A stretch of DNA of 48,815 bases, from NCBI GenBank assembly GCA_038999215.1, contig JAWABM010000002.1:1-48815 (forward strand). Direction: 5' to 3'. Source of the DNA: Candidatus Aenigmatarchaeota archaeon (GTDB taxonomy: Archaea > Aenigmatarchaeota > Aenigmatarchaeia > Aenigmatarchaeales > JACQIB01). Position 1 is the first letter of the stretch. Each line of letters starts with the position of its first letter. The notes beneath the pieces are model-generated. The model was not told the origin of the DNA, did not search any database, and saw only the letters and a program-made list of their open reading frames with translations. Positions 5,227 to 11,357 of the stretch are shown in pieces. The position numbers were made by a program, and so were the translations under genes.

Positions 5227-6432
5227 ATGCTGGAGCTGCTCCTGGCCCTCGCTTTCGGTATCCTTCTCGGCGTGATATGCGGAATAATGCCGGGCCTGCA
5301 CCCTAATAACACGATACCTATCATATTCGGCCTGTCGTTCCTCTTCGACCCGATGCAGGCAGCCGTCGTGCTGATAGCAGCGGGCGTATCGAACTCTTTC
5401 GTGAATTTCATACCTTCTATATTCGTGGGTGCTCCGGATGCCGGCGCAGAGCTATCCGCACTACCTGGCCACAGGATGCTTTTGGCCGGCAGGGGCTTCG
5501 AGGCGGTGCGCCTCACGGTGCTCGGCGGTTTGGGCGCTGTCCTGCTGTCGGTGGCGCTGCTGCCCGCGTTCTCCGTCGTGTTCCCGCTCCTTTACAGGCT
5601 GGCGCGGCCTGTGCTCCATTGGCTTCTGCTCGTCGTCGTCTTCTACATGGTTGCGGGTGAGGAAGGCCTGAAAGGCAAGGCGATCGCCCTGTATGTCATT
5701 GCTGTATCAGGCGCGCTCGGCTATTTTCTTCTTGATGTCGTGTCCGTCAATGGCGCACTGTTCCCTCTGCTCTCCGGCATGTTCGGCCTGCCCATGCTGC
5801 TGCTGGCTGTCAAGGACAAGGTCCGTCTGCCCGAAGGCATGTCGTTCGAGCACGAGAAGATAGGGAAGAAGGACCTGCTTTCAAGCGTCGGGGTGGGCAG
5901 CATTGCGGGAGTTCTCGCCGGGCTTCTGCCGGGCATCGGCAGCTCGCAGGCCACCGTGCTCGCGCAGGAGGCTGTCGGCCGAGGCTCGGACAGGAAGTTC
6001 CTGATAGCGATGGGCGGCGTGGCAGTTTCCGATGTCGTGTATTCGATAATCGCCCTTTACATCCTCGGGAACGCAAGGAGCGGGATAGCTGTCGCCGTCG
6101 GAAACCTTGTCTCCGTCGGGCTCGGCCAGGTGTTGCTCTTCCTCTCCGTCGTTCTGGCGGCCGCGGGCATCGGCGCCTGCATGACCCTCAAGATGTCCAG
6201 GCTGGCCGTCGCCTTTCTCAGAAGGGTCGATTATGCGAAGCTGTGCATGCTGACGTTCGCCGGAGTCCTTGCGATGACGGCCTGGTTCTCTGGCCCCGCC
6301 GGCGTTGCCATATCGCTCGTTGCCTTGAGCATAGGGCTGATACCGAACATCGCCGGCGTGAAGCGCAGCCACTGCATGGGCTGCCTGCTTGTTCCGACGA
6401 TAATGTTTTTTGCTCAGCTCAGTTTAGGCTGA
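5227..6432 (+). CDS. TctA-family / DUF112 integral membrane protein (putative tricarboxylate-type transporter permease)
   Basis: 401 aa and highly hydrophobic. Motifs GIMPGLHPNN and LPGIGSSQA resemble the two repeated PG(L/I)G motifs of the TctA family. Confidence 0.65.
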   Translation: MLELLLALAFGILLGVICGIMPGLHPNNTIPIIFGLSFLFDPMQAAVVLIAAGVSNSFVNFIPSIFVGAPDAGAELSALPGHRMLLAGRGFEAVRLTVLGGLGAVLLSVALLPAFSVVFPLLYRLARPVLHWLLLVVVFYMVAGEEGLKGKAIALYVIAVSGALGYFLLDVVSVNGALFPLLSGMFGLPMLLLAVKDKVRLPEGMSFEHEKIGKKDLLSSVGVGSIAGVLAGLLPGIGSSQATVLAQEAVGRGSDRKFLIAMGGVAVSDVVYSIIALYILGNARSGIAVAVGNLVSVGLGQVLLFLSVVLAAAGIGACMTLKMSRLAVAFLRRVDYAKLCMLTFAGVLAMTAWFSGPAGVAISLVALSIGLIPNIAGVKRSHCMGCLLVPTIMFFAQLSLG

Positions 6433-9079
6433 CGAACTTCCCCAGGGAGCCGTTGTGCGAGAAATAGACCTGCGAACCGCACTCCGGGCACATGCCTGTG
6501 AGCGGCGGCCGCTTCGATACCCATCTGCACTTCTTGCACGCAACCCCGTCATTGCCCCGCAGGGTGGTCTGGTCCGGAGACGGCTCCTTCGAGCCCATCG
6601 CGTCCAGCAGGCTGCGCTGTCTGCAGCCTTCCAGAAGCTCGGTCCGCGTTATGTTGCAGACCTCGAATATCCTCTCGACAGGAGGCAGCACCTGGTTCTC
6701 CGCGTAATACTGCGCATCTATCTCCATGCCCTTCTCTTTCGCGTACTCCGGCTCCTCCGCGCGCTTGGAGAGCATGTCGTTGCCCTTGATTATCACGTAG
6801 CCCAGCCGCTCCCCGACCATGTTCTGCCTGGTCGGGTCTCGCTCCTTTATCTTTTTCGCCAGCTCCACGTGCGGCTGCATTCCGTCATACGCGTCCAGAG
6901 ACTTGGTCACGCCTTTCACGACGGTCAGCTTCTCGAGCGGCACCCTGCCTTCGGCCAGGTCCTTGAGCACCTTGCGCACGTGCTGCGACGCCTTGCTGAT
7001 GTTCTGCTCCTTCAGCATTATGGATATGACTTCCTTCATCGTGTCCGAGGTGAGCTCGCACCAGTCGCGCCGCACTGTCTCGATTCCCTTCATAACTATC
7101 TTGTCCTTCCATTTGCCGTCCTTCTTCTCGAACGCCCATCCGGCATACCGCTTCTTCGTGAGTATCAGGAACGTGTTGAATATCTTCTCGAAGGCTATGC
7201 TCAGCCCGGGCAGCCTGGCAGTGATGAAGCTCGCTATCTCGTTGCCTGTCTGCTCGGCTATGTCAAGGTTGAGTATGTCAGTCTTCAGGAATATCGAGTC
7301 CGTGTCCCCGTATATCACCTTGACTGGGAAGTTGTCCTCAACGAGCTTCTTCGTGTTGATGATGTTTTCCCTTCCTATGCTCGTTATCGAGTTGGCTATT
7401 GCCATGAGGTAGAGCCTTGATCTTATGTAGCCTGTGTACCCGTAGAGGCTGTTTGCCATGGTCTTGAGCGCGAGCTGTTTTGCGTTGAGCTGCCTTGTCC
7501 TCTCGGCATTCGTTTCCTTCTTCATCTCCGCCTTCGCGCGCTTTCGCGCATCAGTCATGTCCCGGAGCATCTTGGGTAGTATCCCTTCGCGCACCTCCTT
7601 CTTCACGAACTTCGTTCCGTACGGAGACGTCACGTATTCGCTCGTCGAGTCGTCGTAGAGCACCGTCGTCGGGCAGATGTTGAACGCCATGATTATCGAC
7701 GGGTACAGCGACTGGAAATCCAGCACGAGCGTGCACCCGGACGAGTGCAGGCCGACAGCTGGCTCGAGCACTATCGCGCCTGTGAGGCCGATTTTCGCCC
7801 TTTCGCTGAGCCTCCTGCTTATTTCCGCCTGGTCCGGCTTGCATGGCATGAGCATGTCCGCCTTCCTGAACTCGTGCAGCAGCCTGCACTCATGCCTCTG
7901 CGTCTGCCCTCCGAACGCGTCCTGCAGCAGCAGCCCCGATATCTTTGAGAGCTCGAAGAATTTGTCCAGCAGCCCCTTGTCCAATACGAGCCTCATCGCC
8001 AGCTCGGAGTCGCGCCTGCAGTAGTCGACCAGCTTTTTCATATCGGATGTGTTGCCGTTCCAGAGCTTCTTTATTTCCCTCACCCCGCCTACGTCCAGCT
8101 TCTCCATCCCCAGCATCTCCTTCGCAACCGTCGCCAGGTTGTAGCGCTTGAAGCTTATCCATGGGTCCTTCTTGAGTATCTCGAACGGGTCCGCTATCAC
8201 TCTTCCTGTTATGTTGGTTATCATGCTGCCGGTCACCTTCCTTGTGTAAGGCCTCTTGTCCGCCCTTCCGAGGTCAGGCTTTATTTCCAGGGCTTCCATC
8301 CTTCCGAGCAGGTAGGGGATGTCGAAGTTGTTGATGTTGTAGCCCACGAGGACGTCGGGGTCGTATTCCTTCACTATGTCTATGAAGCGCTCTATCATCT
8401 CCTTCTCTCCGTTGAAGCCTGTGCAGTCGCTGTCGACAAAGGCCTGTTTCGAGAGCAGCACCATTGTCTTCTTTCCCTTGTATTCGGGGCTGAAATAGAG
8501 CGATATCATTATTATCGGGTCCCTGCCGGCCTCGGGCAGCCTGTCGCCTTCCGTGACGCACTCTATGTCGAGCGCCATGTACCGCAGAGGCACGTTGTCC
8601 GGCCTGTCTATCGGCTCTATCGATTCCGCCTCGATTGCCCTGCACTTCACTGCCGCGGTGCGCACCTGCTTGCCCTTTACGTCCGCCCAACCCATGCCGA
8701 ACAGGCCGTGGTCCACCAGGAAGCGGTAGGCAAACAGTATGTCCGCGTCGTAAGGGGTGCCGTATTTCTTCACAGCTTCCCTCATCTCCGGGACCTTCGA
8801 TGGGTCGGCGCACGTCGCCTTCAGCACCTTCACTGGCGATTTTGAATATCCCATAGGTAGGAACTTTTCCGCAACAGCCGCATTGGCGCCATGCCTCTTT
8901 AGTTCCTCTGTTATGGCCGGGAAATTCTTCTCGTCCGCATGCACGTAGAAGTAGGGCCTGAACTTGTCGTAGAACGCGCACACTGATGATCCGTCCTCCG
9001 TCTTTCCGTACAGCCTTATGACCGGCTTGCTGTTTATCATCGCGTAATCGCAATCGAGAATCTGCATCTGCATGCGCAT
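6419..9079 (-). CDS. polB: family B DNA polymerase with extra C-terminal CxxC-x15-CxxC zinc ribbon
   Basis: Exo I ALDIEC, Exo II YNINNFDIPYL, Exo III YCRRDSELA. Pol A LDFQSLYPSII, Pol B KQLALKTMANSLYGYTG, Pol C VIYGDTDSIF. C-terminal tail CKKCRWVSKRPPLTGMCPECG. Candidate starts are 9079, 9073 and 9067; MQILDCDY matches the usual MILDxDY start. Confidence 0.95.
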   Translation of the reverse strand: MRMQMQILDCDYAMINSKPVIRLYGKTEDGSSVCAFYDKFRPYFYVHADEKNFPAITEELKRHGANAAVAEKFLPMGYSKSPVKVLKATCADPSKVPEMREAVKKYGTPYDADILFAYRFLVDHGLFGMGWADVKGKQVRTAAVKCRAIEAESIEPIDRPDNVPLRYMALDIECVTEGDRLPEAGRDPIIMISLYFSPEYKGKKTMVLLSKQAFVDSDCTGFNGEKEMIERFIDIVKEYDPDVLVGYNINNFDIPYLLGRMEALEIKPDLGRADKRPYTRKVTGSMITNITGRVIADPFEILKKDPWISFKRYNLATVAKEMLGMEKLDVGGVREIKKLWNGNTSDMKKLVDYCRRDSELAMRLVLDKGLLDKFFELSKISGLLLQDAFGGQTQRHECRLLHEFRKADMLMPCKPDQAEISRRLSERAKIGLTGAIVLEPAVGLHSSGCTLVLDFQSLYPSIIMAFNICPTTVLYDDSTSEYVTSPYGTKFVKKEVREGILPKMLRDMTDARKRAKAEMKKETNAERTRQLNAKQLALKTMANSLYGYTGYIRSRLYLMAIANSITSIGRENIINTKKLVEDNFPVKVIYGDTDSIFLKTDILNLDIAEQTGNEIASFITARLPGLSIAFEKIFNTFLILTKKRYAGWAFEKKDGKWKDKIVMKGIETVRRDWCELTSDTMKEVISIMLKEQNISKASQHVRKVLKDLAEGRVPLEKLTVVKGVTKSLDAYDGMQPHVELAKKIKERDPTRQNMVGERLGYVIIKGNDMLSKRAEEPEYAKEKGMEIDAQYYAENQVLPPVERIFEVCNITRTELLEGCRQRSLLDAMGSKEPSPDQTTLRGNDGVACKKCRWVSKRPPLTGMCPECGSQVYFSHNGSLGKFVSLN

Positions 9080-9096
9080 ATATCAGCATCGCATGC

Positions 9097-9927
9097 TTAA
9101 GCGTTTTTCGTTTCCCTTGTCATCAGGTCGAGCTCCAGCGTGCAGCCCTTCGGGCAGCCGATTATTGTCGTGCCCTTGTAGTTCTGGACGAAGCGCTCCT
9201 TTGTCACTGCCAGAAAGATGTCCGGCGCCTCATCGAGGCAGTCGTTCGGCGGGTTGTTGATGTGCCTTCTTTTGAGGAGCTCGAGCGGGGCGTGCTTCTC
9301 TGCCACGCCAAGGGCGTTGCCTATTGCTCCGTAGTCCGCCTCATGCACCAATATCTTGACTCCGCAGCAGTCGTAGAGCCGAGAGCCCGAAAGCGGTATG
9401 TCCCTGCCGAGCACGAGCTTCGCAGGAGCTGTCGCCGGGCTGCGCAGGCACACGTCGGGAAACAGCACCTTCTCGGCTCTTATCCCTTCCGGAGAGGCGA
9501 AGCCCACCACGCCAACAACGTCCTCGTCCAGCAGCTTCGCACCAGTTATCAGCTTGGCCCTTCCGCTAAGGTCCTCTATGTAGCCGTCCCTCTTCGCGCC
9601 TATCACAGCGACAGCGCCTCGGCAGTTCTTTATGGAGACCGCGTTCTTCAGCTCGGCCTTGCCGAGCAGCATTTTCTGCAGCGTCTTGTACCTCTCCGTG
9701 TAGAGCCCTATGAGGTCTTGCATGCTGTACCTTGACGGGTTGGTGAAGTCCTTCACCAGCCTAGCCGCAGAGCAGAGCGACGTTATCTCGCCGGCGCTAA
9801 GCACGAGCGGTCTGTCGCTCATGGCCTTGAGCCGCTCAAACACCGCTGCGGAGACGCGCTCGTCCTTCAGAATCTCGGCCGCAGCCGGATCAATCATCAC
9901 CCCAAGCTCCATTATCTTTTTCAGCAT
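9097..9927 (-). CDS. degenerate PolD small-subunit (DP1) / eukaryotic polymerase B-subunit-like protein lacking phosphoesterase metal ligands
   Basis: 276 aa. OB-like segment AVAVIGAKRDGYIEDLSGRAKLITGAKLLDEDVVGVVGFASPEGIRAEKVLFPDV. C-terminal segment LELLKRRHINNP..LDEAPDIFLAVTKERFVQNYKGTTIIGC resembles, from my memory, Pyrococcus DP1 ELLKMRHLAP..VIEEVPDLVQMGHVHV..YRGVQLVNS. No DxH, GDxxDG, GNHD or GHxH motifs are present. Its ATG shares one base with the orc1 stop (TGATG), and its stop lies 17 nt before polB. Confidence 0.6.
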   Translation of the reverse strand: MLKKIMELGVMIDPAAAEILKDERVSAAVFERLKAMSDRPLVLSAGEITSLCSAARLVKDFTNPSRYSMQDLIGLYTERYKTLQKMLLGKAELKNAVSIKNCRGAVAVIGAKRDGYIEDLSGRAKLITGAKLLDEDVVGVVGFASPEGIRAEKVLFPDVCLRSPATAPAKLVLGRDIPLSGSRLYDCCGVKILVHEADYGAIGNALGVAEKHAPLELLKRRHINNPPNDCLDEAPDIFLAVTKERFVQNYKGTTIIGCPKGCTLELDLMTRETKNA

Positions 9928-11117
9928 CAGAATACTTGCTCCAAGCAGTCCTTCGCCTTCTTTATGACGGGCGGGGAAAGCGCCAGGTTTATCGTCCTTG
10001 TCCTTCCGTGCCTGCCTTTCGATATCACGCGCGTGGTTATTATCCCGAAAAGGTCCAGTTCAGCTATCAGGTCCGAAACGCGCCTTTGCGTCAGCGGTTT
10101 CAGCCCGGCCCTCCTGCAGTTGGTCTGATACAGGTCCACAACGTCGCCGGTGTCAAGGTTGCTGTTCTTTTCCGCTAGCTGTATTATCGAGTAAAGCACC
10201 ACTTTGCTCTGCTTCGGTTGCGCCTTTATCGTCTCTATTGTCCTGTCGGTGTCTATCTTGTCCTCTGCCGCATCCACATGATCTATCCTTATCTGGTCTG
10301 AGCCGTTGCGCTCCGCCAGCTCCGCCGCCACCCTGAGAAGGTCAAGGGCCCTTCGCGCATCGCCGTGCTCCTGCGCGGCCAACGCCGCGCACTTTGCGAG
10401 CACGCCATCGCCAACAGCCCCCTCCCTGAAGGCCATGTCCGCCCTCTGCTTGAGTATGTCCTGCAGCTGAACGGCATTGTACGGCGGGAACACCAGCTCC
10501 TCCTCGCTGAGGCTCGAGCGCACGCGCGGATCAAGGTTGTCGATGAAATTCAAGTCGTTTGTTATGCCCACAACGCACACTCGCGAGTTCTTAAGCTCCT
10601 GGTTTATGCGCGTAAGGTTGTAAAGCACTTCGTCGCCTGTCTTCCTTACCAGCGCGTCTATTTCGTCTATTATCAGTATCATCACCTGCTTTTGGCGGTC
10701 CAGGAGATTGAAGAATGCTGAATAGACTTGGTCGGTGGGCAGGCCTGTGAACGGAAGCTCCTCCCCAAGTTCCTTCGCTAAATATGCTATGAGACGGTAT
10801 TCGGTATCAGCCGAATGCTTCATCTTGCAGTTGGCGTATATGATTTTTATCTTGCTGTCCCGACTGGCCTTTTCGAGCTCAGCTGCCACCCTGCTGGCGA
10901 CCAGGGATTTTCCAGTGCCGGTTCTGCCGTATATGAATATGTTGCTCGGCCTTTCGCCTTTCAGTGCTGGCGCAAGTATCCTTGCTACATCCGCTATCTG
11001 CTTCTCCCTGTGCGGTATTGTCTCGGGCGTGAAGGAAATCGACAATGCGTTCCTGTTCGTTATGATGGGTTTTGCGTCCATGAACTGGTTGAACAGCTCC
11101 TGTATGTTTTGGCTCAT
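9927..11117 (-). CDS. cdc6: Orc1/Cdc6 replication initiator
   Basis: Walker A GRTGTGKS, Walker B LIIDEIDAL, a sensor region and a C-terminal winged helix (DLIAELDLFGIITTRVISKGRHGRTR). Start set at ATG 11117 (MSQNIQELFNQF), which is preceded by AAAGGAGGTG. The track ORF extends to 11183. Confidence 0.9.
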   Translation of the reverse strand: MSQNIQELFNQFMDAKPIITNRNALSISFTPETIPHREKQIADVARILAPALKGERPSNIFIYGRTGTGKSLVASRVAAELEKASRDSKIKIIYANCKMKHSADTEYRLIAYLAKELGEELPFTGLPTDQVYSAFFNLLDRQKQVMILIIDEIDALVRKTGDEVLYNLTRINQELKNSRVCVVGITNDLNFIDNLDPRVRSSLSEEELVFPPYNAVQLQDILKQRADMAFREGAVGDGVLAKCAALAAQEHGDARRALDLLRVAAELAERNGSDQIRIDHVDAAEDKIDTDRTIETIKAQPKQSKVVLYSIIQLAEKNSNLDTGDVVDLYQTNCRRAGLKPLTQRRVSDLIAELDLFGIITTRVISKGRHGRTRTINLALSPPVIKKAKDCLEQVF

Positions 11118-11357
11118 TTGTGCACCTCCTTTTCTTGTGGGATTCGGGTTTAATTGCGTGAAGGTATATAAACTTTTCTCCATGTGAAGCAGGGGGGTTG
11201 GCGTGAAGTTCCATGGGAAATCATGGGGTTCACATGACTCCTAGAAAAAATGGTCCTGAAGCTTAAAATAAGCCTTTTTACGGCTTTTGCCGTTCTGTGA
11301 ACTTCATTTTAGTGGTGTCATGTTCATTTTGTTCATTTTCAGTTCACAAATGACTAT

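Follow-up and report, generated by a model that had tools for sequence, protein, structure and literature searches.

A zinc-ribbon tail on an Aenigmatarchaeota family-B DNA polymerase is homologous to the Zn-III module of DP2 and probably docks an inactivated DP1

The polB gene in a 48,815-nucleotide stretch of contig JAWABM010000002.1 from a Candidatus Aenigmatarchaeota archaeon (hereafter the window) encodes a family-B DNA polymerase (PolB) that ends in a four-cysteine zinc ribbon. This tail is very probably a cut-down version of the Zn-III docking module of the PolD subunit DP2, tethering PolB to a nuclease-dead DP1 and thereby forming a two-subunit replicase in a lineage that lacks DP2. 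In the arrangement we propose, a Zn-III piece of DP2 would have been appended past the end of a Pol-delta-like family-B polymerase, which is marked by a PCNA-interacting peptide (PIP) box. The tail would then tether PolB to the product of the gene upstream, a DP1 without nuclease, and the pair would share the design of eukaryotic Pol alpha, delta and epsilon, in which a catalytic subunit is joined to a B-subunit. The comparisons reported herein show the ribbon's homology to Zn-III, the neighbor's descent from DP1 together with its inactivation, the operon, and the co-occurrence of the two genes across the phylum.

The C-terminal end of PolB reads ...GVACKKCRWVSKRPPLTGMCPECGSQVYFSHNGSLGKFVSLN, exactly as quoted in the original prediction, which was made from the sequence alone. 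That prediction placed a CxxC-x15-CxxC ribbon at approximately nucleotides 6476-6538. The position was correct (6479-6538), but the real spacer is 12 residues long (RWVSKRPPLTGM). Thus, the true ribbon spacing is CxxC-x12-CxxC, and the spacer was the sole error in that observation. All four cysteines are invariant across 30 relatives, as are W853, L860, G862, P865, F873, and G880, and the mean column identity is 58% over a 120-residue C-terminal alignment of the relatives. Judged from the aligned tails, the four-cysteine motif is not a chance feature, and we infer zinc binding by the ribbon solely from these four invariant residues. An AlphaFold2 (AF2) model of the last 120 residues of PolB has a predicted local distance difference test (pLDDT) score of 76.7 overall and of 82-89 over the ribbon and the strands that follow it. 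The modeled order is the end of the thumb, a short helix, a helical turn over QRSLLDAM, a low-confidence linker, the ribbon, and two strands. A conserved SPExTVL segment lies directly upstream of linker residues 844-847. Only 19 residues extend past the ribbon, all in predicted strands, and the helical bundle (clamp-1 helices alpha1′ and alpha3′) was not found in the AF2 model of the tail.

A separate observation concerns the ribbon pattern among relatives. A regular-expression search for CxxC...CxxC returned no match in 31 of 69 related tails (L103-L149). Those of the 31 that were read by eye carry a second knuckle of the form CxC (e.g., ...GKCECGGE...) in place of CPxC, which yields CxxC-x12-CxC. 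This variant of the ribbon is unusual and seems to be fixed in several families.

Profiles of the tail were built from 29-30 relatives found by whole-genome searches, and these cover either the last 120 or the last 65 residues of PolB. When the 65-residue profile was compared with all PDB sequences, three significant matches emerged (E 3e-7 to 6e-7), all of which are DP2 Zn-III modules: residues 1130-1157 of the Thermococcus kodakarensis protein (6knb_B) and residues 1122-1149 of the Pyrococcus abyssi protein (6hms_B/6t8h_B). The next PDB match has an E value of 0.04. Residues 845-883 also weakly match the C-terminal part of two NCBIfam DP2 models (E 9e-4 and 2e-3), at scores far under the cut-offs. 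The tail consensus, vCkkCxWxFRRPtLsGkCPeCg, aligns with the Zn-III of P. abyssi DP2 beyond the four cysteines, and with DP2 proteins from within the phylum the alignment also covers the strands behind the ribbon (profile positions 25-63 of 65).

The loop between the two cysteine pairs is especially informative. The near-invariant docking loop reads K-F-R-R-P-P-L in DP2, F-R-R-P-x-L in the relatives of PolB, and S-K-R-P-P-L in the window, where K856-R857-P-P-L860 occupies the positions of the DP2 docking loop that hold R1131 and R1132. In P. abyssi, these two arginines of the DP2 loop (the “KxRRxP motif”) enter an acidic groove where the oligonucleotide-binding (OB) and phosphodiesterase domains of DP1 meet, and a Zn-III peptide of 20 residues has nanomolar affinity for DP1 (Raia 2019, PMC6355029). 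The PolB tail and DP2's C-terminal domain (CTD; 6hms/6t8h, 6knb) have in common the CxxC-x12-CxxC spacing, the K/R-R-P-x-L loop, the GKCP second knuckle, the following strands, and, by prediction, a partner surface on the OB domain of DP1, in its acidic EDxTG region. They differ in that the module is carried here by a family-B polymerase rather than by a two-barrel polymerase. In addition, DP2 has a flanking helix bundle and a C-terminal PIP box, both of which are missing from the window tail, and two of the three DNA-facing basic residues of the DP2 ribbon are lost. In DP2 proteins from the phylum, approximately 55 more helical residues follow Zn-III and end in a PIP box, QFSLSSF. By homology, we conclude that the ribbon is a DP2 Zn-III module and not a generic zinc ribbon.

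The PIP-like motif that precedes the ribbon reads QKSLFDF or QQNLFDFY in relatives, and the window has A-M in place of the aromatic pair. PolB structures from Thermococcales align with the window protein up to the position of the PIP box and then stop. Because PolBs from Thermococcales and from family f40 of the phylum (described below) end where this box precedes the ribbon, the simplest reading of the alignments is that a Zn-III fragment was added behind the original PIP-type C-terminus of PolB. The statement in the original prediction that classical archaeal PolBs lack a Cys4 module is consistent with the Thermococcales structures and with the tail-less f40 proteins, which end in QKSLxxF. 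By analogy, the PIP-like box presumably binds PCNA, and this internal box could do so while the DP1-like protein bridges to the replisome.

The gene directly upstream of polB encodes a protein composed of an N-terminal helical domain, an OB fold, and a phosphodiesterase remnant. Although Pfam returned no match for this 276-aa protein, a profile of 32 relatives matches DP1 structures across the OB and phosphodiesterase domains with E values of 1e-23 to 1e-20 (best 1.2e-23), and the alignment contains very large deletions in the phosphodiesterase domain. The best Foldseek matches of the AF2 model (pLDDT 93.7) are DP1 (8ppt_A, E 3e-10) and B-subunits from Pol epsilon, delta, alpha, and zeta. The alignment of the DP1-like protein contains none of the DxH, GNHD, and GHxH motifs of the nuclease, and the central part of the phosphodiesterase domain is wholly deleted in this genus, whose protein has 276 aa compared to 280-352 aa in relatives. 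In contrast to these losses, E118-D119-x-x-G122 is invariant in the alignment and corresponds to the acidic EDxTG motif of canonical DP1. On the strength of these profile and motif comparisons, the neighbor is a genuine DP1 that has lost its nuclease. By analogy with PolD and with eukaryotic B-subunits, it may link the polymerase to other parts of the replisome through its retained N-terminal helical domain.

A complex of the DP1-like protein, PolB residues 806-886, and a zinc ion was predicted using alignments for both chains. The score was 0.75 (0.75, 0.74, and 0.75 in separate runs) compared to 0.01 for the best control. In the calibration of the tool, 58 of the 80 solved complexes attained the 0.75 mark, as did 2 of the 110 mismatched pairs. 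The runs have at least 98% of their contacts in common, and the pLDDT of the partner is at least 74. On the PolB side, the predicted interface comprises V846, the docking loop and its surroundings (S855-G862), P865, V871-F873, and G880-N886. On the DP1-like side, it comprises residues 65-80, which form the helix that leads into the OB fold, residues 111-123 (OB strands that include E118, D119, and G122), and residues 134-135 and 226-227. This interface is centered on the docking loop and the invariant E118-D119, and it contains all of L860, G862, P865, F873, and G880, which are invariant in the tail. The model supports binding of the tail to the DP1-like protein for the window pair, in a mode where the beta tail and the basic loop (K856-R857-P-P-L860) are predicted to rest against the acidic surface that E118-D119 gives the OB fold and against the preceding helix. 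The earlier proposal, modeled on eukaryotic CysB and its B-subunit, that the ribbon is the docking site for the adjacent DP1-like protein thus gains support from its Zn-III identity, the dead DP1, the complex score, and the co-occurrence of the two genes with the loss of DP2.

This co-occurrence was counted over 371 species genomes of the phylum, of which 98 are of high quality. The 97-aa PolB tail is present in 334 genomes (94 of the high-quality set), and the DP1-like profile matches 342 (97 high-quality). The N-terminal domain of DP2 is found in only 17 genomes (3 high-quality), 16 of which belong to family f40, itself a family of 17 genomes. The remaining DP2 gene resides on a 3-kb contig of a genome from another family, which also carries the PolB tail. 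Among high-quality genomes outside f40, the tail occurs in 91 of 95 and DP2 in 0 of 95. The f40 PolBs (G354-G370; L067-L072, L153-L157) are 762-778 aa long, approximately 28% identical to the window PolB, and tail-less, and the f40 DP2 proteins (1103-1111 aa) have Zn-III, the following helices, and a C-terminal PIP box. Weak “tail” matches in f40 genomes (E ~1e-3) probably come from the Zn-III of their own DP2, because the tail profile also matches that module. Within the phylum, then, the PolD and PolB-tail states almost never occur together. With regard to the spread of the tail, which the original prediction had singled out for study, f40 is the sole family that keeps PolD, and its PolB is tail-less. 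A tail common in archaeal PolB clades that have no DP1-like gene, named in the original prediction as evidence against docking, is the opposite of what these data reveal.

The f40 DP2 was also considered as a donor of the PolB tail. The tail profile scores 20-28 bits against f40 DP2 and 32-33 bits against the DP2 of Thermococcales. The idea therefore has no support from these higher Thermococcales scores, and the region is too short to decide the matter.

Gene neighborhoods point in the same direction. Related loci were seeded with the 120-aa alignment, and thus on thumb motifs, given that an alignment of the CTD by itself is insufficiently conserved. The tail profile matched in 69 of 80 named loci, and in 49 of these 69 the DP1-like gene resides in the same locus (no more than 8.4 kb), either in tandem upstream of polB (37) or on the opposite strand (12). 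A comparison of coordinates by hand indicated that the tandem order prevails in most families and that the genes are convergent neighbors in a few, with no case of polB and the DP1-like gene lying far apart on one contig. Nearly all of the named relatives are annotated as Candidatus Aenigmatarchaeota archaeon, and the closest named protein is 75% identical in the tail.

Searches of broader protein collections were less informative. When the 65-position CTD profile was compared with 1.84 billion representative proteins, 63 matches were obtained at E ≤ 1e-3, including about eight long proteins matched at their extreme C-terminus, many short fragments, and some unrelated multi-ribbon proteins; a query of this length is too short to gauge the spread of the module beyond the phylum in such a library. 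A word-indexed protein search with the tail yielded three proteins, a number that reflects the limit of the index, and the whole-genome searches were more informative.

The features of the locus are collected in Table 1. The TGA stop codon of orc1 overlaps the ATG of the DP1-like gene as TGATG (9925-9929), and 17 nucleotides (9080-9096) separate the DP1-like gene from polB. Because of this overlap and this short gap, we read the three genes as one operon. The initiator and both replicase subunits look translationally coupled, beside a candidate origin. In another genome (G244), a single 487-aa frame (L017:913-2373, minus strand) combines matches to the DP1-like protein (C-terminal half) and to PolB (N-terminus), and this frame represents either a fusion of the two proteins or an assembly frameshift.

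Table 1. Locations of the polymerase gene, its C-terminal elements, and the adjoining genes in the window
Feature	Nucleotides	Strand	Basis or comment
polB, 886-aa family-B DNA polymerase with C-terminal add-on	6419..9079	minus	Open reading frame, Pfam
PIP-box-like motif QRSLLDAM, residues 836-843	6551..6574	minus	Alignment
End of low-confidence linker from PIP-like motif to ribbon, residues 844-847	6539..6550	minus	pLDDT 57-66
Zn ribbon CKKC-RWVSKRPPLTGM-CPEC, C848/C851/C864/C867	6479..6538	minus	DP2 Zn-III homolog, including docking loop K856-R857-P858-P859-L860
Beta-strand tail GSQVYFSHNGSLGKFVSLN, residues 868-886	6422..6478	minus	Homologous to DP2 strands after Zn-III
DP1-like gene, 276 aa, inactivated and truncated PolD small subunit/B-subunit homolog	9097..9927	minus	Profile and fold
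orc1/cdc6, first gene of the orc1-DP1-like-polB operon	9927..11183	minus	NCBIfam NF001625, E 2e-153, above cut-off

The catalytic portion of PolB appears intact. Pfam assigns an exonuclease domain to residues 109-318 and a polymerase domain to residues 390-806, with no coverage of the last ~80 residues. The motifs DIE, NINNFDIPY, YCRRD, DFQSLYPS, KTMANSLYG, YGDTDS, and KKRY are all legible in the translation, which agrees with the earlier claim that the exonuclease and polymerase motifs are intact, as expected for an active enzyme. The closest solved relative in the PDB is p125, human Pol delta's catalytic subunit (E 2.8e-113, 383 bits). PolB structures from Thermococcales score lower in this comparison, at ~340 bits.

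Several side observations relate to PolB genes elsewhere. A number of orthologous frames are 1300-1400 aa long compared to the usual ~890 aa (L034, L038, L040, L047, L051, G190), and the closest named PolB relative contains an intein domain (PF14890), whereas the window PolB is free of inteins. An intein or HNH remnant was considered as a source of the tail, and this reading was rejected given that the module lies past the thumb and aligns to DP2 Zn-III only. The same genome also carries a second, short PolB-like gene outside the window, on contig C12 (L002:1468-2940, minus strand). Its product of ~370 aa, counted from an internal methionine, has only palm, fingers, and thumb, with the motifs LDFRNLYPS, YADTDA, and KKKY, and is devoid of an exonuclease domain, a PIP box, and a zinc tail. 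This gene could be one half of a split PolB or could encode a stand-alone mini-polymerase.

The pairing of a zinc-tailed PolB with a dead DP1 is already known from studies published in 2020 and 2025. In the first of these, PolB group B6 of Aenigmarchaeota (“B6-aenigma1”) was placed in a “Delta-like” clade, DP2 was reported absent from most of the phylum, an inactive DP1 group (“Aenigma_GB_GCA_002789635-like”) was found to co-occur, and the B6 PolB was proposed to have replaced DP2 (Kazlauskas et al. 2020, PMC7544198). The window protein shares with this group the same phylum, the absence of DP2, and the presence of an inactivated DP1, and its PolB core scores highest against Pol delta among solved structures. 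No essential difference separates the two, and the window PolB is an ortholog that has, by sequence comparison, those defining features of B6-aenigma1 that could be checked. Local traits are the shortness of the DP1-like protein (276 aa) and the A-M that replaces two aromatic residues in the PIP-like box.

In the second study, published in Nature Ecology & Evolution in 2025, the Aenigmatarchaeota tail was called a “degenerate DP2CTD” and the polymerase “PolB-DP2CTD” (PMC12680538). AlphaFold3 predictions and yeast two-hybrid assays indicated that DP1 interacts with PolB-DP2CTD in both Aenigmatarchaeota and Baldrarchaeia, and the two-hybrid assays revealed no DP1 interaction with PolBs that have no CTD (PMC12680538). 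The same study reassigned the two-motif “B6-aenigma2” sequences to Baldrarchaeia (PMC12680538). In agreement with this reassignment, tails with two motifs (CysA plus CysB) were not found among the 80 related loci. The PolB3-DP2CTD of Baldrarchaeia (Asgard) resembles the window system in that an archaeal PolB carries a DP2 CTD in a lineage where DP2 is gone and DP1 is kept. The two are set apart by their descriptions, in which the Baldrarchaeia CTD is full and that of Aenigmatarchaeota is degenerate (PMC12680538).

The CTDs of eukaryotic Pol alpha, epsilon, delta, and zeta provide another comparison. In these enzymes, as in the window protein, a PolB core leads into a Cys4 module, and the partner is an inactivated protein of the DP1 type (a predicted partner in the window). 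The DP1-like model also matches p59, p50, p70, and Pol31 by fold. However, the eukaryotic CTD has CysA and CysB with a helical bundle, whereas the window tail has one Cys4 motif and no bundle, and the eukaryotic B-subunit is about twice the size of the window DP1-like protein. By analogy, the tail would work like CysB, and it is not a member of the two-motif eukaryotic CTD form.

The most serious alternative, which we nevertheless consider unlikely, is that the main job of the tail is something other than subunit docking, such as contact with DNA, and that it may also touch PCNA in the manner of the Pol delta CysA. A PIP-like box is located directly upstream of the ribbon, and the profile that includes the thumb aligns linearly to regions of Rev3 and to residues 936-1036 of yeast Pol3, a region that we take to include CysA (E 2e-7 to 7e-7). 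However, these scores derive mostly from the thumb, and a profile without it matches DP2 alone at significant levels. Basic residues of Zn-III and clamp-1 also surround the DNA duplex in PolD (Raia 2019, PMC6355029). Three of the clamp-1 basic residues lie in the aligned ribbon (R1122, K1125, K1129), and just one of them, K1125, is matched by a conserved residue, K850. A847 and V854 stand in for the other two, in columns that are non-basic in relatives, and the clamp-1 helices are absent, whereas the RRP-x-L loop that docks DP1 is near invariant. Because the DNA-facing basic residues are mostly lost while the docking loop is retained, we favor docking as the conserved role of the tail, although contact with DNA and docking of a subunit would not be mutually exclusive.

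Less probable still is a scenario in which the tail is a decaying relic of a DP2 fusion that no longer binds an equally decayed DP1-like protein. The two genes would then persist for other reasons; for example, the DP1-like protein could serve as a lone OB-fold adaptor of the replisome. The term “degenerate” applied to the Aenigmatarchaeota CTD (PMC12680538), the missing helical bundle, and the reduction of the DP1-like protein to 276 aa with its phosphodiesterase center deleted would all fit such decay. Against decay stand the strong conservation of this tail (58% mean column identity, with invariant cysteines and docking-loop residues) and its presence in 334 of 371 genomes. Furthermore, the predicted interface coincides with the invariant residues of both partners, linkage of the genes survives changes in their orientation, and a positive yeast two-hybrid result has been published for the phylum (PMC12680538). 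A third notion, that the ribbon is an unrelated Cys4 zinc ribbon (RpoP-, LysW-, or Nop10-like) that was gained independently and resembles DP2 by convergence, can draw on the shortness and wide recurrence of zinc ribbons and on sub-threshold matches to Rpb12, LysW, HypA, and adenylate kinase lids (E 0.09-0.9), yet it is highly improbable given that the DP2 matches surpass those to all other zinc ribbons in the PDB by about five orders of magnitude and that the identity runs through the non-cysteine loop FRRPxLxGKCP into the strands after the ribbon.

Several considerations weigh against our proposal that the Zn-III tail tethers PolB to the DP1-like protein. Binding of the window's own pair is a prediction only, and the prediction model may owe its high complex score to recall of DP1-DP2 and B-subunit/CTD structures that have already been solved. 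The custom alignments and the zinc ion carried along in the prediction also depart from the conditions under which the tool was calibrated. Moreover, the affinity could be much lower than that between DP2 and DP1, because the bundle that contacts the phosphodiesterase domain is absent and most of that domain is gone from the partner. Finally, the genome that contains the window (571 kb in 24 contigs) is 88% complete. Neither a DP2 N-terminal domain (PF03833) nor a canonical DP1/B-subunit phosphodiesterase domain (PF04042) was found in this 88% complete assembly, and the absence of DP2 therefore leans mainly on the phylum-wide pattern.

A PolB with a DP2-derived zinc finger and a dead DP1 constitutes an archaeal counterpart of the eukaryotic design of catalytic subunit plus B-subunit. 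The pairing for this reason features in models for the origin of eukaryotic replicases, and the 2020 and 2025 literature has already set out its significance. To this we add the count over 371 genomes, which qualifies the published absence of DP2 from the phylum since family f40 keeps PolD, an interface predicted residue by residue, from which mutagenesis could be planned, and the finding that the tail is joined after an intact PIP-type end.

We also speculate, with somewhat less than even confidence, that this genus carries the smallest natural joint between a catalytic subunit and a B-subunit. This joint would consist of a bare Zn-III ribbon and beta tail that, lacking a helical bundle, hold chiefly onto the OB domain of a 276-aa DP1 from which the core of the phosphodiesterase domain has been lost. 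Both a “before” state (PolD and a tail-less PolB in f40) and an “after” state exist in the phylum. If this is true, then these would form a natural series that bears on which contacts are sufficient for the architecture of a PolB with its B-subunit, as used by eukaryotes.

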